From a virus: DNA of 64,000 nt. The stretch spans positions 21,368 through 85,367 of IMG/VR virus record IMGVR_UViG_3300044984_001421; one strand, 5' to 3'. This document shows, piece after piece, positions 6,305-54,301 of the stretch (position 1 is its first letter; each line of letters begins with the position of its first letter). The notes beneath the pieces are model-generated. The model saw nothing but the letters and a program-made list of their open reading frames with translations, did not search any database and was not told the origin of the DNA. The translations under genes and the position numbers were made by a program.

Positions 6305-6310
6305 GACAGA

Positions 6311-6326: not shown

Positions 6327-6329
6327 CAG

Positions 6330-7109
6330 CTAAGGCAATACAACCATCTGAGCGAAGTTCTGCATGAACTTCTGCTCCACTCCGCTCGCCAGGTCTCGCG
6401 CGATGTTCAACCCAGGTGTGGCGCGCACTATCCACTTCCCAGTCTGATCCTCTCGCATGACGCGGAAGGTCAGATAGGCGGACGACTTCGACTTACCTGT
6501 TGACGTGTTGAAACGAACCATGCCGGCATGAATGTCTGTCGTGTGGTGAGGCTTCAGCTTTTGAGTCAGGCCAGCCGGCAATCTACCGCCCCACTTGTAG
6601 ACACTCTGCGGCACGGTCGCGCCGGTAGCGGACAATCGTGTCTTCTTTCCGATAACAGAAGACTGAACGAGCTTCTTTGCCTGATCGTAAACATGCTTCG
6701 GCATAGCCAGCGCCAGCGCGCCATGGCCGGGCGTATTGTGACGAAACGGGATGATCAGGTACTTCTTGCCGGCCTTGGTCTGCCGCGTGCGCTGCGATGT
6801 CTGCAGCATGACCTTCAAGTCCCGCTCAGGGAAGCCAGACTCTATGCCAGAAACAGTTTTGTCTTCACTCGATACAAGCGCCGATGTGTTTCCGGTCATC
6901 CGCCACTTAATCGAGTCGATTGCTGCCTTCTTCCCATCCTCACGCACGCCAGGCGCGTGATATATGGCGAGTTGCCATGCCGTCGCAGTTTCTGCCGCCG
7001 TCTTTTCGACTGCATTCGAAACCGACTGCATCACGTCCTGAAGCATGACATCAGCCAGAGCACCAAGGTGCGTCAGGTCAATGTCGACTTTGAATGTGGC
7101 TTGCATCAC
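6330..7109 (-). CDS. Neck or tail completion protein
   Basis: Basic protein with IESG..RDLK, YLIIPFRH and YLTFRVM motifs; in the neck gene cluster. Confidence 0.55.
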   Translation of the reverse strand: MMQATFKVDIDLTHLGALADVMLQDVMQSVSNAVEKTAAETATAWQLAIYHAPGVREDGKKAAIDSIKWRMTGNTSALVSSEDKTVSGIESGFPERDLKVMLQTSQRTRQTKAGKKYLIIPFRHNTPGHGALALAMPKHVYDQAKKLVQSSVIGKKTRLSATGATVPQSVYKWGGRLPAGLTQKLKPHHTTDIHAGMVRFNTSTGKSKSSAYLTFRVMREDQTGKWIVRATPGLNIARDLASGVEQKFMQNFAQMVVLP

Positions 7110-7732
7110 CGACCGAACAGGTCAAATCGCCTGACGACAACCCGCCTGGGTAACGGCAATCCACCATGGTGAGCACGCTCTGTCGGGAGTTCCTGAAAGA
7201 CGAAATAGTCCGGATTCCAACGACCAGTCACCGTGTATTTTGTTCCCGCTGCCGGCTGCGGATCGACACCCCAGTCAATCTGTGAATTAACGATTGCACG
7301 CGCCGTTGAGTCCACAATCGTCGCGCCACTGATCCAAAAAACGCGATCAATTGAGTCTGGCGTGAACTGGATGTCATCCAGAACGCCTCTCTCCAAGATT
7401 ACGCTGAATGGCTGGGTTGCTTCAATCAGCCGAACAATGTCGAATTGGCCCATCGCATACAGCGGAGAGTCAGACGGCAGCGTCAACAACAGGTCGCCCG
7501 CCTCAAATATGCCAAAGGCGGCATATTGACGCTTTGAATGCATGCTCGATACGCCGACACGTCCAGCGACTGAAGTCTGCCAAATGCGGCCTTTGCCGGC
7601 ACAGTGTGGGCATGTCGTGCTGGCAGCGCCGGAATGGGGAGAAACGCACGGACAAGCATCTGACTTGCTCCATAGCGTGTCCTGCCCGATTCCAGCCAGA
7701 AATCCATTGAAGGCAATCGGTGATAACTTCAA
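7106..7732 (-). CDS. Head closure or neck protein with a Zn-binding CPC...CxxCxGxG motif
   Basis: CPCVS...CPHCAGKG motif; neck cluster position. Confidence 0.55.
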   Translation of the reverse strand: MKLSPIAFNGFLAGIGQDTLWSKSDACPCVSPHSGAASTTCPHCAGKGRIWQTSVAGRVGVSSMHSKRQYAAFGIFEAGDLLLTLPSDSPLYAMGQFDIVRLIEATQPFSVILERGVLDDIQFTPDSIDRVFWISGATIVDSTARAIVNSQIDWGVDPQPAAGTKYTVTGRWNPDYFVFQELPTERAHHGGLPLPRRVVVRRFDLFGR

Positions 7733-7944
7733 CTTGCGACCCCCAATGGGCGAGCATCTTCCATGTCGAAACGCTTGGTCAACGTCTCGACTGGTTCTGC
7801 AATCCCATTCCCAAGGTAACGATAGACGATTCCGTCACGGACAAATAGGTCGCCTGGGGAAAGTACCAGCCGGTTATCTTGATCCATTTCTTGCCCTTGC
7901 ATCAACACGCTTCTGCCAGTCTTGTAGGCAATCCGGGAAGGCAT
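7729..7944 (-). CDS. Small hypothetical protein (start uncertain)
   Basis: Fills the gap in the operon and overlaps the start of the next gene. Confidence 0.4.
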   Translation of the reverse strand: MPSRIAYKTGRSVLMQGQEMDQDNRLVLSPGDLFVRDGIVYRYLGNGIAEPVETLTKRFDMEDARPLGVAS

Positions 7945-8140
7945 CGCAACTCTTCATCTGCTGTCCGTGATGACTGAACTCGCATGCCTGACAAAACACT
8001 TGCAATGGTTCGCGCCGTAGCTTTTGCGCTTCGAGTGCTTGTTTAAGGTCAAGCGCCTCCCTGAACTGGGCCTGGTCGCACTCGTCCATGACATCGCGGA
8101 ATGTCCCGTTGTCTTGGTCTTCAATCATACGAACATGCAC
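7874..8140 (-). CDS. Small Cys-containing protein (DksA/TraR-like Zn finger possible; start may be MDECD)
   Basis: MDECDQAQFREALDL...CQAC...C...DCLQDWQKR pattern. Confidence 0.45.
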   Translation of the reverse strand: MHVRMIEDQDNGTFRDVMDECDQAQFREALDLKQALEAQKLRREPLQVFCQACEFSHHGQQMKSCDAFPDCLQDWQKRVDARARNGSR

Positions 8141-8907
8141 CTGATACCGTGGATCGCATCCCGCAACGCGTCCAGCTTGTCATCGATGCCATCGTGCAAC
8201 TTCTGGGTATCAACAGAAGTGCTCTGAGACAACCCATCCGCAGAAATAGAACCAGACTGCGGGAAGAACATGCCGTCAATGATGCGCAGCAGCGCCATCT
8301 TCTTGATGACATCCAGCAGGTCCGGATAGTTGTTCACGGCATCAGTCAATCCAGCCGTATAGCGAATCCTGACCATGTGCGGAACAGATCGCCCGCCGCC
8401 AATGATCTGCATCAGGTGCATGGCAATCGGCGTCGCCATCGATGCGCCGGTCGGTACGATGCGAATTTGTCCGTATTTGCGATCCATGCGTATCCAGTCG
8501 GCGGCGATGTCGAACGGGTGCGATGCGACAGCGGGGAAAACCATCTGAATGCTTTGCACGGCGATGATCGGCTTCTGGCGAGTTACGATAAAGCCCCACT
8601 TGTCGTTCTGGAACATATCTGGCTCGTAGTCATACGCAGCCTCGACCAGATGTGGGACGGTCGTGGTGACCGGCTCCGGGCCATCGCTCACCGTAGTCAG
8701 CGCGGCTATTTCGTCATCTGTCGGGTCGCCAGCAAATATCTGCGTCGGCTCGAACAGCACGCGCAACTGACGCGACGCATCCGCCTCTGCGGCTTTGTAC
8801 TGCGACCATAGGAAGCCCGCTTCATACGAACTTGGCATGGGCATAGCCATGCGGTTCAGAGAGGCTTGTAGCGCGGTTTCTGCATCAATTTGTGAAAGTA
8901 GCGGCAT
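8125..8907 (-). CDS. Head-tail adaptor (neck) protein
   Basis: VRIRYTAGL...YPDLLDVIKK and SISADGLSQS motifs; first gene after the capsid block. Confidence 0.65.
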   Translation of the reverse strand: MPLLSQIDAETALQASLNRMAMPMPSSYEAGFLWSQYKAAEADASRQLRVLFEPTQIFAGDPTDDEIAALTTVSDGPEPVTTTVPHLVEAAYDYEPDMFQNDKWGFIVTRQKPIIAVQSIQMVFPAVASHPFDIAADWIRMDRKYGQIRIVPTGASMATPIAMHLMQIIGGGRSVPHMVRIRYTAGLTDAVNNYPDLLDVIKKMALLRIIDGMFFPQSGSISADGLSQSTSVDTQKLHDGIDDKLDALRDAIHGIRCMFV

Positions 8908-19815: not shown

Positions 19816-19893
19816 TGGAGCCGAAGACAGGAATCGAACCTGTGACCTGCCGATTACAAATCGGCTGCTCTCCCAGCATAAAGCTACTTCGGC
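19816..19893 (-). tRNA. tRNA-Thr(UGU) with encoded CCA
   Basis: Acceptor stem GCCGAAG/CTTCGGC, anticodon arm GCCGA-TTTGTAA-TCGGC, T arm ACAGG-TTCGATT-CCTGT, 3' TCCA. Confidence 0.92.
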
Positions 19894-21814: not shown

Positions 21815-21891
21815 GGGTAAAGCATATCACGCCGCGCGGGCGAAGCAACTCAAATAAAAAACAGAACAATTTAATTATCTAACATTTCTGT

Positions 21892-21919
21892 TTGCTTTAT
21901 AACAAAACTGTTATAGAGT
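21892..21919 (+). promoter_or_regulatory. Sigma70-type promoter with a palindromic operator in the spacer
   Basis: TTGCTT-16 nt-TAGAGT; palindrome TATAACA-AAAC-TGTTATA at 21898-21915. Confidence 0.7.
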
Positions 21920-21950
21920 GAGGTCGTCCCCAAACAAACAGGAGCACGAA

Positions 21951-22826: not shown

Positions 22827-22858
22827 AACATAATTGTTTTATTTCTTAACTTTTCTGT

Positions 22859-22886
22859 TTGCTTTCTAACAGTTTTGTTATAAAGT
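22859..22886 (+). promoter_or_regulatory. Second copy of the promoter/operator cassette
   Basis: TTGCTT-16 nt-TAAAGT with TAACA-GTTT-TGTTA; downstream leader resembles the first copy. Confidence 0.7.
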
Positions 22887-22917
22887 GAAGTTGTTCCAAA
22901 CAGACCGGAGAAACAGC

Positions 22918-23952: not shown

Positions 23953-24438
23953 ATGGCACACGGTGATATCAGAAAAGCCCTTGGCCTTGATTTAAATGAA
24001 AACCTTGGCAAGCACCGAACATATCGAATTTGGAAAGCGATGAAATCGAGGTGCTCATGGGATGGACACGAAGCAACCGACAGATACAGAGGTAAAGGCG
24101 TCAAGGTCTGCGCGCGCTGGATGGACTTTTTGTCCTTCCTCGAAGACATGGGACACCCCCCAACAGCAACCCATTCAATCGACAGAAAGGACACCAACGG
24201 CGACTACGAACCAGACAACTGCAGATGGGCAACAAAACTCGAACAAAGCAGAAACCGAGTCATGTGCATTTACTTGGACACCCCAATTGGCAGGGTCACC
24301 ATGACGGAAGCTGCAGCCTACTACGGAATTGATTACCACACGGTGTGGAAGCGCCATTTAAGAGGATGGCCGCTTGCAAAACTATTCTCACCAATCACAA
24401 AACCAGGCCCAAACAGAAGGAATCAAAATCATGCATGA
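23953..24438 (+). CDS. HNH-type homing endonuclease
   Basis: WKAMKSRC...YRGKGVKVCARW..F..FLEDMG...SIDRKDTNGDYEPDNCRWAT. Confidence 0.88.
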   Translation: MAHGDIRKALGLDLNENLGKHRTYRIWKAMKSRCSWDGHEATDRYRGKGVKVCARWMDFLSFLEDMGHPPTATHSIDRKDTNGDYEPDNCRWATKLEQSRNRVMCIYLDTPIGRVTMTEAAAYYGIDYHTVWKRHLRGWPLAKLFSPITKPGPNRRNQNHA

Positions 24439-25414
24439 ACTCGACACTACAACAGGCACCGCAGCGATGGCATACGCGGCCGGCAGCGCAACACCATGGC
24501 ATGGCCTGGGCCAGACCATAGACCCGAACGCGAAGCCGAAAGACTGGCAGCGCGCGGCCGGCATCGAATGGGAAGCCAAGCGCACCCCGGTCGTCTTCAA
24601 CAACATAAAGGATGAATACCAGGAGTGGAATGCCAAGCATGTGCTTTACCGCAGCGACACCGGCATGCCTTTATCGGTGGTCAGCGATGACTACCAGATC
24701 GTCCAGCCGGCCCATGTGATGGGCTTCTTCGGCACACTCGCAGAGCAGGGCGGATTCCAGATCGAGACGGTCGGCGCAATCCGCGAAGGTCGCCGCATCT
24801 GGGCGCTCGCCAGGGTCGGAGAAAACGCCAAGATCATGGACGACGAAGTCGCACCATACCTGCTGCTCGCCACCAGCTACGACGCAAGCATGGCGACGGT
24901 GGCGAAGTTCACCACGGTGCGAGTGGTGTGCAACAACACGCTCCAGGCCAGCCTGAAGAACAACGCCGGCCGGAAGCAAGTGTCTATCCCGCACTCGGCG
25001 ATGTTCAAGCCAGAACAGGTGCGCGCGGAACTTGGCATCGCGCTCAACTCTTGGGAGGAATTCAAGCTCAAGGCCGGCACGATGGCGAAGATGAAGATCA
25101 CCGACACCGAGATGGACGTCTACCTGCAAGAACTTCTGGAAGACTTCATCCCATACGGAACGACATACAACCCGGATAAGGTGCGCGCCAGCAAGGGATA
25201 CCAGCGCATCACGCAACTGTTCCACGGTGGGCAGCTTGGAACCGGCCAGGACGCGATCAACGGCACAGTCTGGGGTCTGGTGCAGGCAGTCGGACAGTAC
25301 GTCGACCATGAGAAGGGTCGGCTGCAGGACAACAGGCTCGACGCGGCATGGTTTGGCCCAGGCGCGAAGATCAAGGACGCTGCATGGACTTTGGCCGAAA
25401 AGGTAACGGCATGA
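24431..25414 (+). CDS. DUF932 / phage-plasmid TIGR03299-like protein
   Basis: TPWHGLG, LYRSDTG.PLSVVS..YQIVQP, GRRIWALA, YLLLATSYD, RVVCNNT, GTVWGL motifs. Confidence 0.88.
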   Translation: MHELDTTTGTAAMAYAAGSATPWHGLGQTIDPNAKPKDWQRAAGIEWEAKRTPVVFNNIKDEYQEWNAKHVLYRSDTGMPLSVVSDDYQIVQPAHVMGFFGTLAEQGGFQIETVGAIREGRRIWALARVGENAKIMDDEVAPYLLLATSYDASMATVAKFTTVRVVCNNTLQASLKNNAGRKQVSIPHSAMFKPEQVRAELGIALNSWEEFKLKAGTMAKMKITDTEMDVYLQELLEDFIPYGTTYNPDKVRASKGYQRITQLFHGGQLGTGQDAINGTVWGLVQAVGQYVDHEKGRLQDNRLDAAWFGPGAKIKDAAWTLAEKVTA

Positions 25415-26325
25415 AAGACACAGCAACCGTAGTCGACACGCTGGTCGGTACGTCGGCCATCAACGCGATGGTCACGAAGTCGAACCGGGACAAGATGCCT
25501 TCGGAAAAACTCGGTCGAGTATTGGCCGCGCTTGGGGTCAACCCGATAGGCAAAGACCCGCGCGGGTTCATGCTGTGGTCTAGCATCGCTGTGCAAGCGG
25601 TCATCCCAGGAATCAGAAAGGTCATCGAGGACGAGAAGTCTGTGATTGACAAGCTGTCCGAGCCGCAGAAAGAAGAACCAAAGCCGGCCGCATTGCCAGA
25701 ATACGCGAACCTTATCGCCGACATGGACCACCGGGTCAGCCTGATCATCGGCGACATAATGGAGGATACGGTCGAGAAGGTCGCGCAGATGCACGCTGGG
25801 AATCAAACCATCTTCAAGACGCTGATCGAGCACGACAAGAAGCGGAAGGACGAACATGATGCGGTCATGCAGAACCTGCTCGATGTGACATCTGGACTTG
25901 CGGCCATCGTTGCGAAACTGAATGAGCCGGTAGTCGATAAAAAACCCGCGCAGGCGCAGATTGCCGATCCAACTTCCAAAGAGATACCGCGAGTTGTTGA
26001 AATTCTTGAGTCGGCAATCCAAGGGAAAAAACACCGTCCGCACATCGGCATCATCGGCATCACATCGCCGGCATCGTCGCAGATTGAAAAAGAGTTCTGC
26101 GATAGTTTCAAGATATCGATGCTCGGCCCGAACGAGCCGCACAAGATCGTCAATATGCGCAACTGCGACCGCGTCTTTACGCTGCGCGGCAAGGTCATGT
26201 CGCGCCACATGAACGAACTCAAGAATATCGGACAGAAGCCGTACAGTATCGGAGACAGCGTGAGCAAGATCCGCGACGCGCTGACGGCTTACTTCATCGA
26301 AGTGTCTGAGAAGGAGGCAGCATGA
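25411..26325 (+). CDS. Hypothetical protein with a C-terminal alpha/beta domain
   Basis: Coupled ORF of about 300 aa. Confidence 0.6.
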   Translation: MKDTATVVDTLVGTSAINAMVTKSNRDKMPSEKLGRVLAALGVNPIGKDPRGFMLWSSIAVQAVIPGIRKVIEDEKSVIDKLSEPQKEEPKPAALPEYANLIADMDHRVSLIIGDIMEDTVEKVAQMHAGNQTIFKTLIEHDKKRKDEHDAVMQNLLDVTSGLAAIVAKLNEPVVDKKPAQAQIADPTSKEIPRVVEILESAIQGKKHRPHIGIIGITSPASSQIEKEFCDSFKISMLGPNEPHKIVNMRNCDRVFTLRGKVMSRHMNELKNIGQKPYSIGDSVSKIRDALTAYFIEVSEKEAA

Positions 26326-26558
26326 TGCTTCCGCAATCATCGGAACGCATCAGAAAGCTCAAGTCAGAAGGTGCTGCCAAACGTAAGCGCCTTATGTCTC
26401 TGGTGCCTGATGAATTCACCATAGCGCAGTTGGTGATGGCCTCTGGGATGAGCGCATCAGAAGCCAGATCACAGATCCAGAAAATGATGCGATGGAATGA
26501 AGTGAAGCAGACAAGCGAATACAAAACTCCACGCACATACAGAAAGGATGCAGCATGA
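26322..26558 (+). CDS. Small winged-helix-like protein
   Basis: FTIAQLVMASGMSASEARSQIQKM; AGGAGG RBS. Confidence 0.55.
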   Translation: MMLPQSSERIRKLKSEGAAKRKRLMSLVPDEFTIAQLVMASGMSASEARSQIQKMMRWNEVKQTSEYKTPRTYRKDAA

Positions 26559-26839
26559 GCCGCCCTACACATCGAGGAAACACACTGTCCCCGGAAATGA
26601 ATGCATCAGAACTGACCTATCTTGCGATGAGAGCAGGCCCGATTGATGCGTCTGCGCTCCGCATAAGAGCCGGAGGAATCAGCCACGCAAACAAGATGGT
26701 TCGCATCGGGCATGCGACGGTCAGTACAGACGGACAGAATCCGGTCTACCGCATCACGAATGAAGGACGTGCAGCGTGCCCAAGCCGCCGCACAATCGAG
26801 AAGGAAATCGTTGAGATTTATCCGGGAGTGATGGCATGA
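26555..26839 (+). CDS. Small hypothetical protein (winged-helix-like, YRITNEGR)
   Basis: ATGA-coupled ORF. Confidence 0.55.
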   Translation: MSRPTHRGNTLSPEMNASELTYLAMRAGPIDASALRIRAGGISHANKMVRIGHATVSTDGQNPVYRITNEGRAACPSRRTIEKEIVEIYPGVMA

Positions 26840-27099
26840 ACGAAACTGAACTCGAATCTCCGCGAGATGAAATGGGCCGGCTGCTCAGTCACGGTGAGCA
26901 TTACTGGCTGGACTTGCCGATTCACCCCAATGCTGCTGCGGCTCTCGGAGAAGAACGGATGATCGTGATCTTCAACCAGACGATGGTGGCGCTCCACAAC
27001 AACGTCGCCAACCGGCTGATATTTGCCTGGTCCGGTTCGATGCGTTACCCAGGCTGCCACGGTGATGTCGTGTTTAACGAAGCTGGGGATGCAGCATGA
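26836..27099 (+). CDS. Hypothetical protein
   Basis: ATGA-coupled ORF. Confidence 0.55.
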   Translation: MNETELESPRDEMGRLLSHGEHYWLDLPIHPNAAAALGEERMIVIFNQTMVALHNNVANRLIFAWSGSMRYPGCHGDVVFNEAGDAA

Positions 27100-27416
27100 A
27101 AACAGCATCGAAACAAACCTTGGAAGCGCGCATAGCAACGCTTGAGCGTCAGCTTCAAGAAGCCATAGCAGGGCAAGCGCACACCTACCACTTCGCTGAC
27201 GCCTATCTGGACAAGGCGAGCACTAAACACCTCATGGCTTCTGGTGTGATTCTGACCATGACGGTGCTCGGTGGGAGGGCAATCTGCGAACCAGTGTTGA
27301 TCCGGGATGGGCTGTCAGACGAAACGATAGCCGCACTGAAGGCTGACATGCGCCGAAGTTACGAACTGGCGACCATGTACAAACCTAAACCGCTGCCACA
27401 AAAGGAAGAAAAATGA
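27096..27416 (+). CDS. Hypothetical phage protein
   Basis: ATGA-coupled; LMASGVIL...IRDGLSDETIAALKAD. Confidence 0.6.
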   Translation: MKTASKQTLEARIATLERQLQEAIAGQAHTYHFADAYLDKASTKHLMASGVILTMTVLGGRAICEPVLIRDGLSDETIAALKADMRRSYELATMYKPKPLPQKEEK

Positions 27417-27781
27417 GCAACAAGCACTACGCGGAACGCGACGCCATGGAACAGGGGCAGTTCTACATCGACCACGTCATGGCAATGACAGCAGAGGAAC
27501 TGCACAGCAAGGCGGACATCGCCGCAGAGTTAGCGCACCGAGACATCATCATCAAGAACCTCGAAAACCGCCTCGCTGTCTGGGAAGCCGGCACTGCTGC
27601 GGACATCTCGCGGTCGATGATCAAGACGGCAGACAAACTCATGCAGGAGCGCGATGCCATCAAGTCCGCGCTCTCCGATCTGCTGTTTGTCATCAACCCG
27701 GACAAGGACGGGTCGTTTTTCATCTGCGAAGAAGGAGCGGTAATTATCGCTGCCGCGCGGATTACATTGGAGGAATCATGA
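27413..27781 (+). CDS. Conserved phage hypothetical protein (YAERD...HV.AMTAE.LHSK.DIAAELAHRD type)
   Basis: Recognisable phage motif; coupled ORF. Confidence 0.65.
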   Translation: MSNKHYAERDAMEQGQFYIDHVMAMTAEELHSKADIAAELAHRDIIIKNLENRLAVWEAGTAADISRSMIKTADKLMQERDAIKSALSDLLFVINPDKDGSFFICEEGAVIIAAARITLEES

Positions 27782-28002
27782 GCGAGAAAAACACAGGCGG
27801 GCCGGCGTTTCCGTTTGCATTTGCAGATGAAGACCGGGTTAGTGATGGCATGACCATGCGCGATTACTTCGCGGCGAAGGCGATACCTTACGCACAAGAA
27901 TCAGGTTTCTATGACAAAACAAAGCCTGGAACTTGGGCAGAACAGGTTGCGGTTGAGTGCTATGAGATGGCCGACGCAATGCTGAAAGCGAGGGAAGCAT
28001 GA
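27778..28002 (+). CDS. Conserved phage protein (GGPAFP...GMT.RDYFAAKA...ADAMLKAR type)
   Basis: Recognisable phage motif; GGAGG RBS. Confidence 0.75.
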   Translation: MSEKNTGGPAFPFAFADEDRVSDGMTMRDYFAAKAIPYAQESGFYDKTKPGTWAEQVAVECYEMADAMLKAREA

Positions 28003-28083
28003 GCCGGCCAGGACAAGGAACAGACATCAAGGTCGCCAGCCCGGCATGCCGGATGTTCGAGCAGAAATAACCGTTTTTTTATG

Positions 28084-28112
28084 TTGCTTTATAACAGTTT
28101 TGTTTGTACTGT
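28084..28112 (+). promoter_or_regulatory. Third promoter/operator copy; probably leaderless (ATG 28119 at +1)
   Basis: TTGCTT-17 nt-TACTGT with TAACA-GTTT-TGTTT. Confidence 0.65.
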
Positions 28113-28118
28113 AAGCGC

Positions 28119-28313
28119 ATGGACAGAAAAACAGCCATCCAGGTAATCAAGGTCGCCGGATACCACGGTGATACGAAAACATTCATGCGGACCTACTGCG
28201 AGAACAGGATCAGCTTCGCCGTCGCGGATAACTTCTTCCGCAAGGGTAAGCAAGCAAAGCTGGCCGGCATGAAGTGCGACTGCAACCAGTGCAAGAAGGA
28301 GAAAGGCGAATGA
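28119..28313 (+). CDS. Small basic protein with a C-terminal CxCxxC
   Basis: ATG 7 nt after the -10 element; coupled to the next gene. Confidence 0.6.
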   Translation: MDRKTAIQVIKVAGYHGDTKTFMRTYCENRISFAVADNFFRKGKQAKLAGMKCDCNQCKKEKGE

Positions 28314-28546
28314 GCACGCACACGGTCTTACAGTGCCACAAAACCAAGTGGCACAAGAATCCGGTGTCAGGTCACGAATGGCCTGAATTCACGTTCATCA
28401 ACCGCTGGCAAGTTCAGGGCGGTGTGGCGCTTGGCGAAGTCTTCTTCAGCGAGAAAGCTGCGCAGAAGCATGCCGACTTCCTCAACAAGTTCTGCCCGCC
28501 TGAATACATCAAGCGCATCCAGGCGATAACTGCACCGAAGGAGTGA
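28310..28546 (+). CDS. Hypothetical protein
   Basis: ATGA overlap; RBS. Confidence 0.55.
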   Translation: MSTHTVLQCHKTKWHKNPVSGHEWPEFTFINRWQVQGGVALGEVFFSEKAAQKHADFLNKFCPPEYIKRIQAITAPKE

Positions 28547-28547
28547 C

Positions 28548-28895
28548 ATGGACAACAACAAGACCGCACTCATGCTATCCCAGGCCATACCGATGGGAGA
28601 GCACGACAACCCGCACGGAGAATGGATTCGGGTCCGTCTCGACGTTGTTCTTGACGCCATCGAGCAACTCAAAGACGCGGCACGTTACCGCTGGCTGATG
28701 GAGCGGATGCAGGAAGTCTATGACGGCGCTAACTATGACATTGGTCATGTCGACATAAGCTGCATGATGATCTTCGGCCGCAAAGAAGTGCGTCGCGTGT
28801 CGGCAGAAATTAGCTGGTTCGATGAGCGAGACGAAGACCTCAACTTGAGCTCGGCAATTGACCGCGAACTCCAACAACCAACAACAAAGGATTGA
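28548..28895 (+). CDS. Hypothetical protein (KDAARYRWL motif type)
   Basis: AAGGAG RBS; common phage motif. Confidence 0.65.
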   Translation: MDNNKTALMLSQAIPMGEHDNPHGEWIRVRLDVVLDAIEQLKDAARYRWLMERMQEVYDGANYDIGHVDISCMMIFGRKEVRRVSAEISWFDERDEDLNLSSAIDRELQQPTTKD

Positions 28896-28897
28896 AG

Positions 28898-29260
28898 ATG
28901 TGGATCGCACTTAATAACAGCTTCTTAAGCATTGTCCGAAAGCAGCCGCGCGACAAGTTCCTGACCGTCCGCGCCAGGGTTGCTGGCGACATTGAGCGCG
29001 TGTTCCCGGACGCTAAGGTCCAGGTCGGAGGCGGAACGGATTACAAGTTCCGCGCGCAGATCGGCGATAAGGTCGTGGCGGATGCCATCGCAAAGCAGAT
29101 CAAAGGCATCAGCTACGGCAACTTTAAGGACAGCGTGCAGGACGATGACCGGCACGATGCCTACTTCAACGTGTGGCGCGCGATGATGGCGATGCAGAAG
29201 ATGCCAGTCGACCACCGGCAAGATGCGATGTTTGACTTCTACGAAGACAGTGTCGATTGA
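28898..29260 (+). CDS. Conserved hypothetical protein (MWI...FLSIV...VRAR...DY.FRA...Y.NFK type)
   Basis: AAGGA RBS; recognisable motif pattern. Confidence 0.7.
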   Translation: MWIALNNSFLSIVRKQPRDKFLTVRARVAGDIERVFPDAKVQVGGGTDYKFRAQIGDKVVADAIAKQIKGISYGNFKDSVQDDDRHDAYFNVWRAMMAMQKMPVDHRQDAMFDFYEDSVD

Positions 29261-29262
29261 TT

Positions 29263-29326
29263 ACGCAACGCTGGCGTAACCGGCGCGCAGCGAAGCGGAG
29301 CGTCCGCGTTGACGCAAATGTTAGAA
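29263..29326 (-). repeat. attC site 1
   Basis: Minus strand TTCTAAC-ATTTG-CGTCAACG-CGGACGC...GCGCCG-GTTACGC-CAGC-GTTGCGT, with the extra C in L'' and extra A in GGACGC. Confidence 0.8.
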
Positions 29327-29344
29327 CTCAGGAGGGAATAGACC

Positions 29345-29551
29345 ATGCAACTCAGAGAGGGCGAAGTGGCTTTTGTGATGGCGCAAATTGCGCTGCTGAA
29401 CTGCGAAGTGGCTGGCATGCAGGCCGAAAACACGCACCGCCTGAACTGCGGAAATTCCGTTGCCTACGGCGCGGACGAGTTCGCGGCCGTGCGGCAGCAG
29501 TACGAGGCGCTGATCGGCAGCAACGCGATCTTAGAGATGGCGCGGTCATGA
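29345..29551 (+). CDS. Cassette 1 gene, hypothetical
   Basis: AGGAGG RBS; bounded by GTTAGAACTC (29320) and GAGTTCTAAC (29550). Confidence 0.7.
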   Translation: MQLREGEVAFVMAQIALLNCEVAGMQAENTHRLNCGNSVAYGADEFAAVRQQYEALIGSNAILEMARS

Positions 29552-29575
29552 GTTCTAACGAATGACGTGTTAGCC
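29552..29575 (-). repeat. Collapsed attC (outer R boxes only)
   Basis: GTTCTAAC-GAATGACGT-GTTAGCC; both R boxes match the far ends of the neighbouring cassettes. Confidence 0.6.
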
Positions 29576-29609
29576 ACGACACGCTAAAACGTGGCACCAC
29601 TGAGAGGAT

Positions 29610-29978
29610 ATGAACGTGCGAACTTTGACTGACCATAAGATTAACCCCGGCAATGACACGCTGACCATTACCGTGCTGGACGAACCTGGGCACGGTGGAG
29701 CAAACCACGCCTACGACATCGAAGGTGGCGAGGCGGTACCGACGCACCTGCGCTTTCAAAACGGCCCGATCAACGCGGACGGCAACGGCGTGAATGGCAT
29801 TACTCACGAGGCGTTGCTTGCGGTGCTGTGTGACCGCCTGCGTGGGTTCCAGGCGGGGCAGTATGCCTGCAAAGCGAACGCTTGCGCACTGACCCACCTG
29901 GAAGAAGCACAGCACTGGCTGCAACAGCGCACCATCGAGCGTATGCGGCGTGGCGTCGAAGGCACGCACACGGTTTGA
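29610..29978 (+). CDS. tad1: Tad1-family anti-defence sponge protein (anti-Thoeris/anti-CBASS)
   Basis: G.GGA.H.Y.I...FQ.GP...LL....DRL..FQAG....NACALTHLEEA..W...R...R..RGVEGT matches the Tad1 pattern as I recall it. Confidence 0.85.
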   Translation: MNVRTLTDHKINPGNDTLTITVLDEPGHGGANHAYDIEGGEAVPTHLRFQNGPINADGNGVNGITHEALLAVLCDRLRGFQAGQYACKANACALTHLEEAQHWLQQRTIERMRRGVEGTHTV

Positions 29979-30014
29979 TGTTATGGCCGGCATGACGACG
30001 CGAGAACTCATGCC

Positions 30015-30105
30015 GGCTAACGAACCAGCTAAGTGGCGCGCGTGACCAAGCCAAACGAAGCTGCGCCGGATGTTCGCGCGTCCCGCCTTGAGCGCCTTGT
30101 TGGGC
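30015..30105 (-). repeat. attC site 3 (long loop)
   Basis: Minus strand GCCCAAC-AAGGC-GCTCAAGG-CGGGACGCGCG...CGCGCGCCA-CTTAGCT-GGTTC-GTTAGCC. Confidence 0.85.
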
Positions 30106-30269
30106 TTCTCTGGGCGATCATCTGGCGTCGATGGATGACTGGGCCTGGCGGTCACAAGCGGCGAGTGGTGCGCGTTAAGGGGTGGCGCACAGCCATCGTC
30201 GAGAGCGACTGGGAAATGCGCGTGACGGTGACGCCGTGTTTCTCGGTTTTTGGATGGCGGTTCGATTGA
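30033..30269 (+). CDS. Cassette 3 gene, hypothetical; starts inside attC (GTG 30033 or 30042)
   Basis: Only ORF filling the cassette; stops just before the next core site. Confidence 0.5.
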   Translation: MARVTKPNEAAPDVRASRLERLVGLLWAIIWRRWMTGPGGHKRRVVRVKGWRTAIVESDWEMRVTVTPCFSVFGWRFD

Positions 30270-30273
30270 TGAC

Positions 30274-30341
30274 GCCGAACGCCTAGCTAACCGGCGCAGG
30301 CGGCCTTATCGCCTGCGTCCGGGTTGAGCGACGTGTTATGC
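30274..30341 (-). repeat. attC site 4
   Basis: Minus strand GCATAAC-ACGTC-GCTCAACC-CGGACGCAGGCG-ATAAGGC-CGCCTGCGCCG-GTTAGCT-AGGC-GTTCGGC. Confidence 0.87.
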
Positions 30342-30364
30342 CTTTGACAACGAAAGGATGCGCA

Positions 30365-31048
30365 ATGGAACACACAAAAGAGCGTTGGGAGTGGTCGGAG
30401 CACAAATTCAACGCGCCGCCGTTCGAGGGGACACTTGACCACGAATGCGGCATTTACCCACCAGACGGCGAGAGCGGCCCTGTGGCGATAGCCAGCGGGA
30501 AGAACGACGCACGGCGCATTGTGGCTTGCGTGAATGCTTGCGCCGGAGTGACGACGGAAGAACTTGAGCAGGGCGGGTTTGTTTCTGGACTGATTGAGCA
30601 GCGCGACGAGCTTGCAAAACTGTGCAACTACAACGAGCGCTTGATGCAGGACTGTTTGCGCCTGGCCGAAGAAGCGCCGCGCTGGCGTGATGTGGTTGAT
30701 GAGCTTCCGCAAGAGGCGCAAGAAGTGCTGTTTGTGCGTGACGGAAAGACAGTTCACGGCGCGTGGATTGGCGGGATATTCTGGCACAGCAACAAGAAGA
30801 TGGCCGCTGCGCAATGGATGCCACTGCCGAAACCGCCAACGGCGGCGCTTGCGAGACGGCGGCCTGTGGCGTGGATTCGGTTTTGCAGCGACGGATGCTA
30901 CGAGGGGCCGATCATGGACGCACAGATTGAAGATGTGCGAAAGCAAAGCGGGGCATGGACTCCGCTCTATAAGCACAACGACTTGCGACTGGTGCAGGTT
31001 GGTCCCTGCACATGCAGCGACCACGAATGCGGGGAGTGCATGCGATGA
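30365..31048 (+). CDS. Cassette 4 gene A: mosaic phage protein with a DUF551-like module
   Basis: NDARRIVACVNACAG motif; WRDVVDELP..AQEVL...QWMPLPKPP; AAGGA RBS. Confidence 0.7.
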   Translation: MEHTKERWEWSEHKFNAPPFEGTLDHECGIYPPDGESGPVAIASGKNDARRIVACVNACAGVTTEELEQGGFVSGLIEQRDELAKLCNYNERLMQDCLRLAEEAPRWRDVVDELPQEAQEVLFVRDGKTVHGAWIGGIFWHSNKKMAAAQWMPLPKPPTAALARRRPVAWIRFCSDGCYEGPIMDAQIEDVRKQSGAWTPLYKHNDLRLVQVGPCTCSDHECGECMR

Positions 31049-31287
31049 ACTTCGACGACTGGATGGCTACGCAAAACCCTAAGTACATGCCGACCGACGA
31101 CACTGTGGCGCTGAGGTTGCTGCGCGATTGCTGGAGAGCGGCGGAGTTCCACAGTGATAGAGCGCAGGAGCGCGAGCGGATGATTGCACTGATGCGAGAT
31201 AAGTGCAGGAAAGTCGGCGCTGACAGGACGGCGGCACCTCATGGGCGTTGCGGCATACCAGGAATGCTTGGACACCATGAGGCATAA
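31045..31287 (+). CDS. Cassette 4 gene B, hypothetical
   Basis: GGGGAG RBS; ATGA overlap; stop TAA lies within the core site GCATAAC. Confidence 0.55.
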   Translation: MNFDDWMATQNPKYMPTDDTVALRLLRDCWRAAEFHSDRAQERERMIALMRDKCRKVGADRTAAPHGRCGIPGMLGHHEA

Positions 31288-31318
31288 CGCATGAGACACA
31301 GCAGAATTGACGTATAAC
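31282..31318 (-). other. attI-like or insertion end of the cassette array
   Basis: Core GTTATGC (minus strand) with no attC hairpin and a direct GTTATAC repeat 30 nt upstream. Confidence 0.45.
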
Positions 31319-31335
31319 TGCGAAATCTAGATGTT

Positions 31336-32559
31336 TTACTTCATGCCAGCCTTGCTGATGACATCGTGATCTGCTTCGCTATCCAGATACAGATGAAGAT
31401 CTGACTCTGGAACAAGATGCGCTGCCTGGCTCTCCCAGCCAACGTCCGCAGGCGTTCCTCCGACACGAACCGCATGATAGTAGCGTGTTACAGATGACGT
31501 CCGGTCGACGTCACAGGCATAGCCTACGATCTTCACCTTCAGGCCGGATTCTTCGAACACTTCCTTGATGGCATTCGCCTGCCAGGACATCTCGTCCTCG
31601 ATTTTCCCTTTAGGGAACGTGTTTTTATAGCCGCCGAACTGGTTGGTCGGAGACACCAGCCAGACACGACCATCCGGCTCTTTGATGATGCAGCCTGATG
31701 CCGGCTTGAGTCCTTGCTTCAGATGCATGACAGGCTCGTCCAGGTCTTCCATCTGCCCTTCGACGTAATCCCACTCTTCGTCGGTCTTGGGATGATCCAG
31801 CCAGGGTGACAACGCGAGTCCGTTCAATTCGTCCGGGCAAGCGCCACCAGGGATGAACGTCGCCGTCTTCTTCTGGTCGTGCCAGGTTTCAGGCGCAGTC
31901 TGATGATTCGGGTTGTAGATCCCGACCGGCTTACCGTTGTCGCCGTTCTTCGGGTGGTAGACCTTGGGCGGCGCTTTCGGCAGCGTGTGGAACAGGAACG
32001 AGCCGCCACCCATGCCGTACTGCGGCGCGACAATCTTCTGGTGCGGCTGCGTACTCAGTTTCTTGATCTTGCCGGAGTCGGTGTGCTTGATGCGGAACAG
32101 CGATCCTTGGCGCTCGTAGTCCTTGACGACCGTGCCGTCCTTCTTTGTGTGACCGTGGACGTGCGACTTCGCCATCGTCTCGCCACCGGCAAGCATTTTG
32201 TCTACTGCCTTCTTTGCGTCTTCAATGCCGCCAGGATTCGCCCATGCCTGCGCACGGTAGTGGTCAGAGGACTTCTCTCCGGTGGATGGGTTGACGACCA
32301 GTTTGTAATCATGCCGGTCGAGTATCTCGAACACCGTGGTAACAGTTTTCTTCGTGCCAGCCTTCATCTGCCCAAACACAGATTTTGTTGCCTTTTTCGA
32401 GCCTTCACGCTTGAACACGCGCAACCGAAAGCCACGATACGGCTCGCCGACGTTGTGCTCAGTTCTTGAGTCCTCATGGGCGCGAACGGCTGTGCCGTCT
32501 TTGCGCACAAAGCCGTGGACGTGCGACTTCAACAACCCGGAGTCGGTGACAACGATCAT
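31336..32559 (-). CDS. Tagged polyprotein ending in a NUDIX hydrolase domain
   Basis: Two tags (LLKSHVHGFVRKDG, MAKSHVHGHTKKDG); Nudix box FPKGKIEDEMSWQANAIKEVFEESGL; ATGA overlap with the upstream gene. Confidence 0.85.
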   Translation of the reverse strand: MIVVTDSGLLKSHVHGFVRKDGTAVRAHEDSRTEHNVGEPYRGFRLRVFKREGSKKATKSVFGQMKAGTKKTVTTVFEILDRHDYKLVVNPSTGEKSSDHYRAQAWANPGGIEDAKKAVDKMLAGGETMAKSHVHGHTKKDGTVVKDYERQGSLFRIKHTDSGKIKKLSTQPHQKIVAPQYGMGGGSFLFHTLPKAPPKVYHPKNGDNGKPVGIYNPNHQTAPETWHDQKKTATFIPGGACPDELNGLALSPWLDHPKTDEEWDYVEGQMEDLDEPVMHLKQGLKPASGCIIKEPDGRVWLVSPTNQFGGYKNTFPKGKIEDEMSWQANAIKEVFEESGLKVKIVGYACDVDRTSSVTRYYHAVRVGGTPADVGWESQAAHLVPESDLHLYLDSEADHDVISKAGMK

Positions 32560-33050
32560 GCCGGCATCCTTTCTTCTGCTCCCATCAGAACTTTGACCGC
32601 GTACTGCAGCGACGGCTTGAGCATCACACCAAACAGCATGTCGTCGCCATCGGCCAGCTTCCACTTCTCGATAACCAGCGCAGCCAGCCAGTCGAACAGG
32701 ACCGCGACAGGATCATCGGCGAACTCATGCCGGTGAGCATGCCAATGCGGTCCCAGGTCAATCTTCAGCTTGTTGCCCAGCGTGAAGTCGTTATAGCCAT
32801 TGATGATGCTGTAACCAGGGTCACGCCCGGAGAAGATGCCGGCCAGACGGGTGATCTCAGAGCCAAGTTCAGCATGCGCAGAATCTCCCGGAACCTCTCC
32901 GGAAGACGCTGCCATGGCAATCGCTTCAACCTTGGCGGCGAATCCACCAACCAAGCCGGCGACTACATCAGGATTGCCAAGACTGGTCGCGCTTGACGGG
33001 TCCGAGAAGGCTCCTGGCGATACACGATAACGGTCTCTTTCTTGTCCCAT
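32556..33050 (-). CDS. Hypothetical protein between the kinase/ART polyprotein and NUDIX
   Basis: AAGGAG RBS; overlaps the 3' end of the giant gene. Confidence 0.6.
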   Translation of the reverse strand: MGQERDRYRVSPGAFSDPSSATSLGNPDVVAGLVGGFAAKVEAIAMAASSGEVPGDSAHAELGSEITRLAGIFSGRDPGYSIINGYNDFTLGNKLKIDLGPHWHAHRHEFADDPVAVLFDWLAALVIEKWKLADGDDMLFGVMLKPSLQYAVKVLMGAEERMPA

Positions 33051-51703: not shown

Positions 51704-51719
51704 ATCTTCACGTCACGAC
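51704..51719 (-). promoter_or_regulatory. Putative late promoter overlapping the terminase stop codon
   Basis: GTCGTGACG-TGAAGAT. Confidence 0.5.
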
Positions 51720-54301
51720 GCGCGACGCGCGAAATAATCGCACGCTGGATCGTCTGACTTTACGCGGCATACTCTCTCCGTGCAGTGAAGGTCTGCCTCA
51801 TAATTGCAACCACCGCATGTGTCCGATGTTTCGAGTGAGATCGTCTTTCCGGGCATGCCATTGATGGTCTTCAAGACGCGCCCCTCCTTGATGTTCGGGA
51901 TGAATATCTCAACCTGAGAACTGCCAATCAGTTCCATGAATGCGCGAGACAGACCATCGACCTGATCGTCCCAGGTACCATTCGGGAACATTCGCATCTC
52001 GGAAATCAGCGCGTCGTTCCAGTCGGCCTTTAGCATCATGACGTTCCCGACGTTGATCTGGCTGGCGAACGGCTCTGCCCGCGTGATCTTGCTGCCAGTC
52101 TCCGGAGACGTTTTGACCGTGTAACCGGCCAGCTTGCGCACCAGATACTTGATCTGAGTCACACCAGCCTGTCCAGGGTCTTGTGGAATTGAGATGCGGC
52201 ATGTGTCGCCGTCCCGAGCCGCTGTATTAACCAGCGCAGCATCCCGTTCATCAGGACCAACGCGGATGCGAACCATGTCGCCGATGATCAACCGCCCATC
52301 CGGAAGCAGGCCAAGCTTCGGCCCAGCAGACCAGTCGCCGGTTGTTGTTGAGGCGAAGTCCCAGCCGCGCACCCAATCAATCGGGCCTGCAGGAATTGCC
52401 CCGACGATCTGGATGTTGTCCGGCTTGAAGATGCCACCAGCCAACGGAGACGGGCGCTGCATGTACTGGCCGGCGAACGTGTACGGGTCGGCCATTTCCA
52501 TCTGGCGCAGCATTTCAATCGAGTGCTTCTCGGGCCAAAGCGCCTCGCCAGTTTCAGTGATCGCGGACAGGCATAGATGCTCCCATTCCTCTCCGCTGCC
52601 ACCGTTCAGCAAGAAGCCAGTCATGTCGTTTTCATGCAAGCGCTGCATGATGACGATGATTGGCGTCTCGGGCGAGTTCGTCCGACTGGCAATCGTGTTC
52701 GTGAAGCGGCGGTTGATCCGGTCGCGCATCGTGTCCGAGAAAGCATCATCCGGCTTCAACGGGTCATCAATGATGATCGCGCCTGCAAATCCATCTGCCG
52801 GGCTTCCAGTTCCAACTCGACGCCGGCCCATTCCGCCAGCACCGAAACCGGTAATCGCACCGCCTGCTGCAGTCGCATACAAGCCGCCGCGCGCCTCAGT
52901 AAACCATTTCTTTTTACTGTCCGAGTCTGCGCGCAACGCCATCGGGAAGAACTTCTGATACTCGGCAGACTTGACCAGATCCCGGATCGCGCTCGAATTG
53001 TCCAGAGCCAGGTCGTCCGAATAGGACAGGTGGATAAACTTCGCCGCCGCGTTGTTCGCCAGGCACCAGGCGATGAACATCTTGACGGCAATTTCAGTGT
53101 TGTGCGTCACCACAAGGTCGCGCCCAGCGCAGAATAGGTGGTCCGGAGCTTCAACGGAGAAGCAAACCATTTCACGCGATTCGACCGGAGAAATATCAGC
53201 AACAAACCTGCGCGGGCTGTTGCGCTCACTGCGTCCACGCACAAGGTCCAGCTTGCGCTTGAGTCGAAACGCAACATCCCCGTTTGCCAAAGAGATGGAC
53301 GTTTTATAGGCCCGCCTGCCACATTCCGGCTGGCTCTCGTTGCACCGCCAAGTACCGCCAAGACTATTAATCAAAAAATGGAGATCGTCTGAAAGCCTTT
53401 TACTTGAAAAGCTAACCGACTGCTCTCCATTCTTCTTGTTTACCGTTCCGTCCGTATCGGAGATACCTTGAAGTAGCGCGAGTCGCTGGCGATGGCTTGA
53501 CCGGAAATACACATCAGGTATGTGCTTGTTTTTCAGAACACCAAGATCCAATAGCGCGCGACCGAAACCTTTCCTGATCCCGTAAGTTGTTGCCCGTCCA
53601 GAGGATTGATGCTTGTGAGGTTTCGGTTCGAAGCCAGAAAAACAGTCGATTATTTCCTTGTCCATCGTTGTTATCGCGGCATAGTGCGAATGACCGTCAC
53701 CAAGCCACAACCCAAATAGATACGGGTCAATTGGCAGTGAAATATCGCAATCATTCCCGTCAGCAAGAACGGGAATGCGCCACTTTTTACGACCATCAGC
53801 CTCAAACAGATCTGCAGCCAATTCGTCTGTTTTCTTGATCTGCCATGGAGCCGTCCATGAACGATCTGACGATTTGTCTCGTAACCTGGCAGACCACAAG
53901 TGCTCACCGCAAGCAACAAGCGATGCGCCATCCGAGAATGAAACCTTATAGGCTGGCTTTACCCCTTGCGGATAAACACCAAGCACGGCCGTCCAGCGCC
54001 CATCACTTCCGAGAAGACTTCCACCAACACGCACATCACCAGCACGAACCCATCCTTCTGGTGTCCACATTGGCGTGTCAGAGTCAATTGCCTTCGCGTA
54101 ACGAGGCGGAATGTTGATGATCAACCGCCGCGTCTCTCCGCGCGCCACCCGTACCAGCGCATCGAACAACTGCGCGTGATACGGCTCCAGCATGAAGCTC
54201 TTGTTGTACTGAGCCTTGAAGAAGAAGCGGACGAAGTAATCGAACTCCGTCAACAACCTCACATACTGCAGATCCAGCAGTTCTTGCTCAGAGTGCTGCA
54301 T
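51713..54301 (-). CDS. terL: Terminase large subunit containing an intein (start 54301 or GTG 54313)
   Basis: LIINIPPRYAK|TE Walker A, IIIDDPLK, MQRLHEND, YMQRP, WDFA, FPNGTWDDQVD. Confidence 0.93.
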   Translation of the reverse strand: MQHSEQELLDLQYVRLLTEFDYFVRFFFKAQYNKSFMLEPYHAQLFDALVRVARGETRRLIINIPPRYAKAIDSDTPMWTPEGWVRAGDVRVGGSLLGSDGRWTAVLGVYPQGVKPAYKVSFSDGASLVACGEHLWSARLRDKSSDRSWTAPWQIKKTDELAADLFEADGRKKWRIPVLADGNDCDISLPIDPYLFGLWLGDGHSHYAAITTMDKEIIDCFSGFEPKPHKHQSSGRATTYGIRKGFGRALLDLGVLKNKHIPDVYFRSSHRQRLALLQGISDTDGTVNKKNGEQSVSFSSKRLSDDLHFLINSLGGTWRCNESQPECGRRAYKTSISLANGDVAFRLKRKLDLVRGRSERNSPRRFVADISPVESREMVCFSVEAPDHLFCAGRDLVVTHNTEIAVKMFIAWCLANNAAAKFIHLSYSDDLALDNSSAIRDLVKSAEYQKFFPMALRADSDSKKKWFTEARGGLYATAAGGAITGFGAGGMGRRRVGTGSPADGFAGAIIIDDPLKPDDAFSDTMRDRINRRFTNTIASRTNSPETPIIVIMQRLHENDMTGFLLNGGSGEEWEHLCLSAITETGEALWPEKHSIEMLRQMEMADPYTFAGQYMQRPSPLAGGIFKPDNIQIVGAIPAGPIDWVRGWDFASTTTGDWSAGPKLGLLPDGRLIIGDMVRIRVGPDERDAALVNTAARDGDTCRISIPQDPGQAGVTQIKYLVRKLAGYTVKTSPETGSKITRAEPFASQINVGNVMMLKADWNDALISEMRMFPNGTWDDQVDGLSRAFMELIGSSQVEIFIPNIKEGRVLKTINGMPGKTISLETSDTCGGCNYEADLHCTERVCRVKSDDPACDYFARRAS
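53099..54091 (-). mobile_element. Class 3-type intein (331 aa) with LAGLIDADG endonuclease
   Basis: Starts Ala (K|AIDSDTP), ends VTHN|T; block B HLW, block F VCFSV, block G THN; LFGLWLGDG and LLQGISDTDG. Confidence 0.88.

Follow-up and report, generated by a model that had tools for sequence, protein, structure and literature searches.

The IMG/VR virus record IMGVR_UViG_3300044984_001421 is a linear sequence of 85,367 bp with a CheckV completeness of 93%, and its bases 21368-85367, a stretch of 64,000 nucleotides referred to here as the window, were analyzed; positions below are those of the window unless another record is named. The subject of this study is the interval 29263-31288, in which a sequence-only reading had seen integron-type attC sites bounding gene cassettes, with no integrase in view. 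We found in this interval three full-length attC sites, a shorter site designated X, and four cassettes with their genes, listed here from left to right.

29263-29326, minus strand: attC site 1, 64 nt, in cassette d, at the left end of the array
29269-29558, minus strand: cassette d, 290 bp, with site 1 and gene B
29345-29551, plus strand: gene B, 68 aa, in cassette d
29553-29575, minus strand: site X, read as a truncated attC of 23 nt, in cassette c
29559-30020, minus strand: cassette c, 462 bp, with site X and gene C
29610-29978, plus strand: gene C, 122 aa, a predicted homologue of Tad1 (Thoeris anti-defence 1), in cassette c
30015-30105, minus strand: attC site 2, 91 nt, in cassette b
30021-30279, minus strand: cassette b, 259 bp, with site 2 plus 174 bp and only a doubtful open reading frame (ORF), D
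30033-30269, plus strand: ORF D, 78 aa, the sole ORF of cassette b
30274-30341, minus strand: attC site 3, 68 nt, in cassette a
30280-31287, minus strand: cassette a, 1008 bp, with site 3 and genes E and F
30365-31048, plus strand: gene E, 227 aa, a mosaic gene in cassette a
31045-31287, plus strand: gene F, 80 aa, in cassette a

Read on the minus strand, the three full-length sites share one layout, i.e., an R'' box (RYYYAAC), 5 nt, an L'' box with an extra C, 2-3 nt, GGACGC, a loop, GCGCC, an L' box, 5-6 nt, and an R' box (GTTRRRY); both the positions and the architecture are those that the sequence-only reading had given. The 5' arms are TTCTAAC-ATTTG-CGTCAAC-GC-GGACGC in site 1, GCCCAAC-AAGGC-GCTCAAG-GCG-GGACGC in site 2, and GCATAAC-ACGTC-GCTCAAC-CC-GGACGC in site 3. 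The AAC/GTT triplets are invariant in these sites, with the R boxes elsewhere fitting RYYYAAC/GTTRRRY loosely (e.g., TTCTAAC and GTTATGC), and in each site L'' and L' form 6/6 Watson-Crick pairs plus one bulged base. In alignment, the bulged A of GGACGC falls on that of class 1 sites, and 33 real attC sites have the extra base of L'' in this same arm. As control arrays we used MH445380 (a phage P1 isolate with a class 1 integron), MK672802 (Vibrio anguillarum), and MZ568829 (Shewanella), whose IntI genes served as positive controls and scored 394-508 bits on TIGR02249. In every true attC of these arrays, the strand pointing away from intI has the extra base in its 5' arm, and the R' that ends one attC is complementary to the R'' of the next, an end-to-end rule found also in the window. 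Because the extra bases of the window sites are in the 3' arm of the plus strand, the plus strand is the bottom (recombining) strand.

The four complementary core pairs reported for the intervals are present. When the crossover (G/TT) is set between AA and C of each plus-strand RYYYAAC box, four cassettes result, and all have complementary ends: 29320-29329 with 29550-29559 in cassette d (10/10), 29569-29575 with 30015-30021 in cassette c (7/7), 30099-30105 with 30274-30280 in cassette b (6/7), and 30335-30343 with 31280-31288 in cassette a (9/9). The intervals thus bear out the description of them as real cassettes. On the plus strand, each cassette reads as its own attC (the bottom-strand sequence), a ribosome-binding site, the gene or genes, and a stop codon. 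In cassette d, the ribosome-binding site (AGGAGG) is 9 nt past the R box; the stop codons of genes B and C, as well as that of gene A of the backbone to the left, precede an R box, while that of gene F is exactly at the crossover.

Site X was missed by the sequence-only reading, which had also run the array on to 31318, whereas we place its end at the R box 31282-31288; the three sites of that account stand. Site X is made up of an R'' box (GGCTAAC), a 5-nt spacer, and the first 4 nt of L'', directly followed by an R' box (GTTAGAA). A homologous cassette in the viral locus L026 has a full 70-nt attC at 6040-6109 that begins with this R'' (GGCTAAC) and resembles site X in its spacer and in the first part of L''. 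By this comparison of sequences, site X is a truncated attC, and its truncation has probably locked cassettes c and d together.

A loose scan for the attC architecture gave 20 matches in the 85-kb genome compared to a mean of 8.8 in 30 shuffles, which is not significant alone. A strict detector, AACA..L''(3+bulge+3)..L'..CGTT with 6/6 Watson-Crick pairs, returned sites 1, 2, and 3, each on the minus strand, and nothing else from the entire 85,367 bp of the genome, and in the three real integron arrays it returned sites on the correct strand only. We then relied on covariance models whose sole input was the top strands of bona fide attC sites; these models are home-made rather than those of IntegronFinder or HattCI. 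MAFFT alignments had the 3' arms of class 1 sites (60-70 nt) out of register, and the models were therefore built from selected sites: R1 from 3 gapless 60-nt class 1 attC sites, and R2 from 22 sites of three integrons with both ends aligned, leaving 11 of the 33 collected sites as held-out positives. Both were searched against the whole window on both strands with filters off. With R1, site 3 came first at 24.1 bits (E 4e-4), site 1 second at 19.3 bits (E 0.0095), and site X fifth at 11.5 bits (E 1.6), the best unrelated match having 15.6 bits. With R2, site 3 came first at 24.7 bits (E 0.0013) and site 2 second at 23.2 bits (E 0.0029), held-out real class 1 sites scoring 16.3-29.6 bits on this model. 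All matches to the sites run end to end on the minus strand, and models of this type found nothing above 12.5 bits in the other 21.5 kb of the genome or in L004, an 18-kb distant relative. The covariance check on both strands that the sequence-only reading had proposed therefore put sites 3, 2, and 1 on top (24.7, 23.2, and 19.3 bits), with home-made models. A cluster of attC sites lacking an integron integrase (CALIN) is delimited in the available portion of a phage survey as at least 2 attC sites within 3 kb with a bit score of at least 20 (Qi 2023, PMC9892861). Here, three full sites lie within 1.08 kb on one strand, two of them above 20 bits (R2) and site 1 at 19.3 bits (R1), as scored by the home-made models.

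A strand-specific pattern was derived from sites 1-3, for which we estimate that almost no chance matches are expected, and it matched 109 IMG/VR stretches and at least 120 bacterial-genome stretches. The bacterial matches listed are mostly from Beta- and Gammaproteobacteria, many of them metagenome-assembled genomes, and R2 finds arrays in many of the viral loci fetched by the pattern. Across 104 distinct attC matches, 99.7% of L-box cells pair, and 6/6 L pairs have changed on both sides. Compensatory cells numbered 147, compared to 39.2 ± 4.5 in shuffles (0/500 reached the observed value), and slid controls paired in 14.5-44.7% of cells versus 98.5%, the alignment having been fitted to the model and hence favouring pairing. 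Compensatory change in the L box points to selection on the fold.

Not only the sites but also cassettes recur elsewhere. The Tad1-like gene C and its counterpart in L026 (6094-6521) share 95% amino acid and 85.6% nucleotide identity, and the nucleotide match sets in at 29560, a single base off the crossover. Between 4576 and 8482, L026 has 11 attC sites on one strand; among the plus-strand genes in the intervals are those of the Tad1 homologue (6151-6513) and of an RNA ligase (7682-8419; PF09414, 77 bits). The gene at 5638-6045 of L026 has the opposite, canonical polarity. Segments of genes E and F recur in L033, L032, L105, and L096. By blastn (E 1e-10), L026, L105, and L096, as well as the loci L076 and L119 described below, share nothing else with the 85-kb genome; a tblastx comparison of selected loci with the genome was discarded in favor of blastn, as it gave hundreds of compositional hits. 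Further matches in viral loci are confined to the attC sites, i.e., site 3 in 50 loci (20 at 95% identity or more) and site 1 in 23 (6 at 95% or more); they start most commonly at 30278 (24/53) and 29267 (14/23) and end most commonly at 30338 (19/53) and 29324 (20/23). In the 120 bacterial loci listed, copies of site 3 or site 1 at least 89% identical were found in 7, several of which are short contigs of metagenome-assembled genomes; no host is named on the basis of these copies. Altogether, the sequence comparisons indicate that the attC sites of the array belong to a bacterial attC subfamily and that its cassettes are common to unrelated viral contigs.

The genes of the array do not follow the canonical rule by which a cassette gene lies on the attC top strand, upstream of the attC. 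Genes B, C, E, and F are on the plus strand, whereas the attC top strand is the minus strand, so that 4/4 cassettes are reversed. For a census of polarity, viral and bacterial loci were treated with the same pattern and the same gene caller, and the gene just upstream of each attC in the top-strand sense was scored. The caller is a crude one that uses GC by codon position and requires GC1 > GC2; a first caller based on GC3 only was dropped, since it confuses the sense frame with the antisense frame sharing third positions and failed on the AT-rich Vibrio and Shewanella controls, and owing to this failure only loci with a GC content of at least 0.55 were counted. At viral sites, 43 genes were opposite and 4 the same, with 30 sites giving no call (77 sites from 72/109 loci), while at bacterial sites 6 were opposite and 29 the same, with 24 giving no call (59 sites from 56 of the 120 loci listed). 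Counted by near-duplicate clusters, with one mixed cluster assigned to the viral set, the ratio of opposite to same was 34/4 for viral and 5/28 for bacterial carriers (Fisher p 1.2e-10). Of the 5 sites detected in the MH445380 class 1 array, 4 had their upstream gene on the attC top strand and the fifth had no gene called. Within this attC subfamily, reversed polarity sets the viral carriers apart from the bacterial ones. The suggestion of a phage-side cassette pool, which the sequence-only reading had drawn from the cargo, is backed by this difference between viral and bacterial loci and by the sharing of cassettes among viral contigs.

That reading had also placed an IntI elsewhere in the phage genome as one of two possible sources, and here it is not supported: the whole 85,367-bp record, at 93% completeness, has no integron integrase, the best TIGR02249 scores being 27.6 bits for a protein and 14.4 bits in a genome scan, compared to a cut-off of 265. 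The 27.6-bit scorer is the single tyrosine recombinase of the record (G000:C1:8014-9000, outside the window; PF00589, 103.8 bits), which may be the integrase of a phage that may be temperate. The 109 loci come from 107 distinct viral records, 2 of which have an IntI above the cut-off, as does 1/19 of the viral records that are at least 90% complete and have this attC subfamily. The two are L076 (446.5 bits) and L119 (472.6 bits; a 'provirus' record), and both proteins are 55-57% identical to IntI1. In both loci, the attC top strands point away from intI, the arrangement found in any integron, and the cassette genes point towards it; their arrays hold site 3 copies 96.7% (L119) and 93.2% (L076) identical. 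Pfam matches (96.5 and 52.9 bits) confirm two of the L076 cassette genes as N6_N4 DNA methylases, and this locus also has a phage tail protein. The arrays with IntI span L076:5195-8288 and L119:1048-5955, and in L119 a second tyrosine recombinase directly follows intI (6119-7060).

Since the sites fall within the 5' untranslated regions of the genes, on the strand that is transcribed, and the phage does have a tyrosine recombinase, they might be taken for the phage's own intergenic hairpins, such as terminators, RNA-processing signals or operator-like repeats, or for substrates of that recombinase. We regard this as extremely improbable. Models of bona fide attC sites match them end to end on one strand, and sites of the same type also occur in bacterial genomes and, in L076 and L119, next to IntI. 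T-run terminators are not above chance (9 versus 8.8 expected), the phage recombinase is far below the integron integrase cut-off, as given above, and simple hairpins leave the complementary cassette ends unexplained.

Taken together, these results make it highly probable that 29263-31288 is a genuine integrase-less attC cassette array (CALIN) of four cassettes that arose by IntI-type exchange, with IntI acting in trans. Several observations weigh against this interpretation. In the model searches, R2 gave site 1 only 10.5 bits (E 2.7), below its best unrelated match of 11.9 bits, and R1 did not report site 2; the E-values of home-made, short-calibrated models are rough, and the models are not those of IntegronFinder. 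Rfam matched no attC-like family, which is uninformative either way, as the attC model content of Rfam is not established. When folded as DNA hairpins, only site 3 was better than shuffles (z = -2.5), sites 1 and 2 having z values of -1.2 and +1.8 and minimum-energy folds other than the attC fold. One attC of the array is truncated, the record has no IntI, and no recognisable attI is present at the array, where only an R box and a second RYYYAAC box were found; nor did a search of 24000-32000 find any sigma-70-like promoter. The census caller picked an antisense ORF for gene E in the window. The loci compared were fetched by a pattern taken from these very sites and share attC by construction, so that only the end-points of similarity are informative. 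Lastly, contigs of four metagenome runs contain no excision joints, as cassette loss would leave, and no contig listed from these runs bridges site 1 or site 3, which leaves the cassette order without independent support.

The Logan contigs in question come from four lake runs and diverge from the window at 29267, 29324, 30278, and 30338-30341; in runs X7 and X10, depth in the attC bins is 148-174 compared to 0-26 in other bins. Given that all listed contigs stop inside sites 1 and 3, an assembly chimera across these repeated sites might have made the cassette order or the link to the backbone, and the k-mer depth of X7 contigs over 28600-31900 is likewise unequal (22.4 for gene A, 6.65 for cassette d, and 14.6-16.7 for the rest), although such depths cannot rank the parts. 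We consider a chimera quite improbable. Six runs, which may be the source of the stretch, hold 98-99% of its sampled words, contigs bridge site X and site 2 without difference (X9 record 26 and X7 record 21), and the repeats of 64-68 nt are shorter than a short read of 150 bases, a value that is typical in general rather than taken from these runs. As the defining features are within each cassette, a chimera would alter the order of the array but not its nature.

A further explanation is that the array is a fossil or was passively inherited, its cassettes having been made by an old or foreign IntI and moving now only by homologous recombination at near-identical attC sites, with no present role for IntI. 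The truncated site, the lack of joints in the contigs of the four runs, and the absence of IntI both here and from 18/19 near-complete viral records with this attC subfamily would all fit, as would the abundance in the same metagenomes (X7 and X10) of attC copies 95-98% identical over ~60 nt, seen in the depths above. Nonetheless, similarity stops at the R boxes near G/TT and not randomly inside attC, and the cassette ends are complementary beyond the core (9/9 and 10/10), as circular intermediates predict. Moreover, intact IntI adjoins such arrays in L076 and L119, and compensatory change maintains the pairing of the L boxes. A fossil array is therefore unlikely, though less so than a chimera.

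The cargo fits the view of the sequence-only reading that it is phage-like. Gene C is, by sequence, a homologue of Tad1: its residues 20-121/122 align with residues 15-122/123 of the Tad1 chains 8kbh, 8kbg, and 7uav in the PDB (E 1.9e-16, 63.7 bits), and it matches phrog_2428 (E 9e-33) and, weakly, PF24729 (18.9 bits compared to a cut-off of 27). Runs X7, X10, and X14 hold a second variant of the Tad1 cassette that is ~90% identical; along with the unequal depths of the X7 segments, it hints at array variants in the population, a claim that contig depths cannot carry. Gene E has a DUF551 signal of 15.8 bits, below the cut-off of 22. It is a mosaic in which 30278-30599 is 92.5% identical to one cassette of L033 and 30671-30861 is 83% identical to a different L033 gene (94.6% in amino acids over residues 103-158), while other parts match L105 and L096. 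No family match was obtained for gene B, ORF D, or gene F. ORF D starts with GTG inside the loop of attC site 2, its frame runs through the 3' arm of that site, and tblastn against 110 viral and 120 bacterial loci found no match to it. ORF D may be a real gene whose coding sequence passes through the hairpin, or else cassette b may lack an ORF.

At its right end, the array stops at the terminal R box 31282-31288, which reads GCATAAC on the plus strand and GTTATGC on the minus strand. A second RYYYAAC box, GTATAAC, is found 30 nt beyond it at 31312-31318, and apart from this box nothing attC-like and no R1 or R2 match is present in 31289-31318. The same AGGCATAAC is followed by a full attC in L105 and by a collapsed site in L096. 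In L076, two RYYYAAC boxes are 31 nt apart (by hand count) beside intI, the sequence between them not being clearly alike that of the window. The segment 31282-31318 could be a remnant of attI or the original target site.

Two genes of the backbone bound the array.

28898-29260, plus strand: gene A, 120 aa, left-hand neighbour of the array, with a stop codon 2 nt ahead of site 1
31336-32664, minus strand: NUDIX-domain gene (PF00293, 40.4 bits), bounding the array on the right

Gene A has no Pfam or PHROG match, and a homologue 46% identical is present in L004. The array is at the 3' end of a small accessory gene block on the plus strand, ~24.4-31.3 kb, and has a GC content of 0.60-0.625, somewhat higher than the 0.52-0.555 of the genes to its left; to its right are the convergent NUDIX gene and a gene of 1903 aa. 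L004, the sole relative found via the NUDIX protein (44% identity), is distant, with 18 kb of sequence, a different gene order, and no attC match, and the phage collection searched contained no close relative. The record is an uncultured, myovirus-like tailed phage from lake water, with PHROG matches (all E < 1e-39) to tail sheath, major head protein, portal, large terminase, a DnaB-like helicase, and 2 DNA methyltransferases; lake-water metagenome runs contain near-identical sequence at the level of contigs, although the best holders may be the source sample. The large-terminase ORF (51713-54313, 866 aa) has its terminase match in residues 406-805, and its N-terminal 300 residues have weaker matches to DNA primase and DnaC-like helicase-loader PHROGs; it may be a fusion or carry an extra P-loop domain. 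A tRNA gene is present at 19819-19893 on the minus strand (Rfam, 64.4 bits). Directly upstream of small plus-strand gene blocks, at 21880-21920 and 22830-22890, are two copies of an AT-rich element of ~45 nt (…TTTCTGTTTGCTTT.TAACA….TGTTATA.AGTGA…), each containing a short inverted repeat, which look like phage promoter/operator repeats. R2 matches to them as attC, at 21897-21916 (E 1.3) and 22864-22883 (E 1.5), were rejected as AT-rich, promoter-like direct repeats.

For the CALIN of this phage, we envisage that cassettes would be inserted or exchanged by the integron reaction, in which IntI cuts and joins the folded bottom (plus) strand of attC. IntI would be supplied in trans by a host integron or by an IntI-bearing phage, a host integron being a possible source given that the attC subfamily is common in Beta- and Gammaproteobacteria. 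Cassette genes would be expressed by read-through from upstream phage promoters. With their genes on the bottom strand, the cassettes would be antisense to Pc at a bacterial attI and thus silent there, and such silence would separate the bacterial pool from one on the phage side, to which the anti-Thoeris sponge Tad1 belongs here. What the reversal means could lie in silence within bacterial integrons, in expression through phage read-through, or in the bottom strand being exposed as the non-template strand. More broadly, and with slightly less than even confidence, we propose that the tailed phages of freshwater Proteobacteria maintain a separate cassette pool, in which ordinary bacterial-type attC sites go with every gene on the bottom strand and the cargo includes anti-defence genes such as Tad1 and orphan methylases. 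This pool would be exchanged among unrelated phages by the IntI of hosts or of a minority of phages, expressed by phage read-through and silent at a bacterial attI, and its recombining strand would be on the non-template (probably lagging-template) strand, favouring folding during infection.

Integrons are known as the gene-capture devices of bacteria, and recent work has found anti-phage defences among their cassettes. Should phages operate a mirror image of this, phage and host would share integron recombination as one arena of their arms race. Small unknown genes after attC in phages would then form a list of candidate counter-defences, here genes B, E, F, and perhaps ORF D, and the reversal would allow the control of attC folding by strand choice, transcription, and replication to be tested directly. 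The gain from this window alone is smaller, i.e., one well-documented case, with a Tad1 cassette shared with an unrelated array.

Several known systems bear comparison. Gene C, known here from its sequence, resembles the Tad1 sponge proteins (PDB 8kbh, 8kbg, 7uav, and 8kbb), with which it aligns over residues 20-121. Text searches of the literature turned up no paper describing a Tad1 gene as an integron cassette, and the available part of one paper lists integrons among the places in which anti-defence genes are located in bacteria (Tesson et al. 2024, PMC11370490). The statement of the sequence-only reading that integrons are rare in phages is fair, and the kind has already been published: among 10,705 phage genomes, the portion of the survey at hand reports 3 complete integrons, one In0, and 17 CALINs, as well as recombination with attI1 under IntI1 for 5/6 attC sites of virulent phages (Qi 2023, Front Microbiol, PMC9892861). 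The array described here is like those phage CALINs in having at least 2 clustered attC sites, no IntI, and cargo useful to a phage (methyltransferases there, Tad1 here). It is unlike them, as they are described in that portion, in that 4/4 of its cassettes are reversed, as are 34/38 callable viral clusters of this attC subfamily; no systematic reversal of gene polarity relative to attC is described there (PMC9892861), and full-text searches of one paper library turned up no paper on reversed cassettes in phages. Phage CALINs are thus already known from what could be consulted of that survey (PMC9892861), while no paper on the reversal turned up in the library searched.

Compared to soil and freshwater proteobacterial integrons, including the mobile class 1 integrons (IntI1; 60-nt attC of the aadA type), the layout of the sites is the same almost base for base. 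R'', 5 nt, L'' plus an extra C, a stem with a bulged A, L', and R' are shared with class 1 attC, and R1 matches sites 3 and 1. Unlike these integrons, the array has no intI and no recognisable attI or Pc, and its genes are on the bottom strand. In the 'inverted integrase' integrons (e.g., that of Treponema denticola), intI is flipped and the cassettes keep their normal polarity relative to attC. L076 and L119 are like them in that intI and the cassette genes are co-directional, but differ in how this comes about, as their intI is in the normal orientation relative to the attC strand and it is the genes that are reversed.

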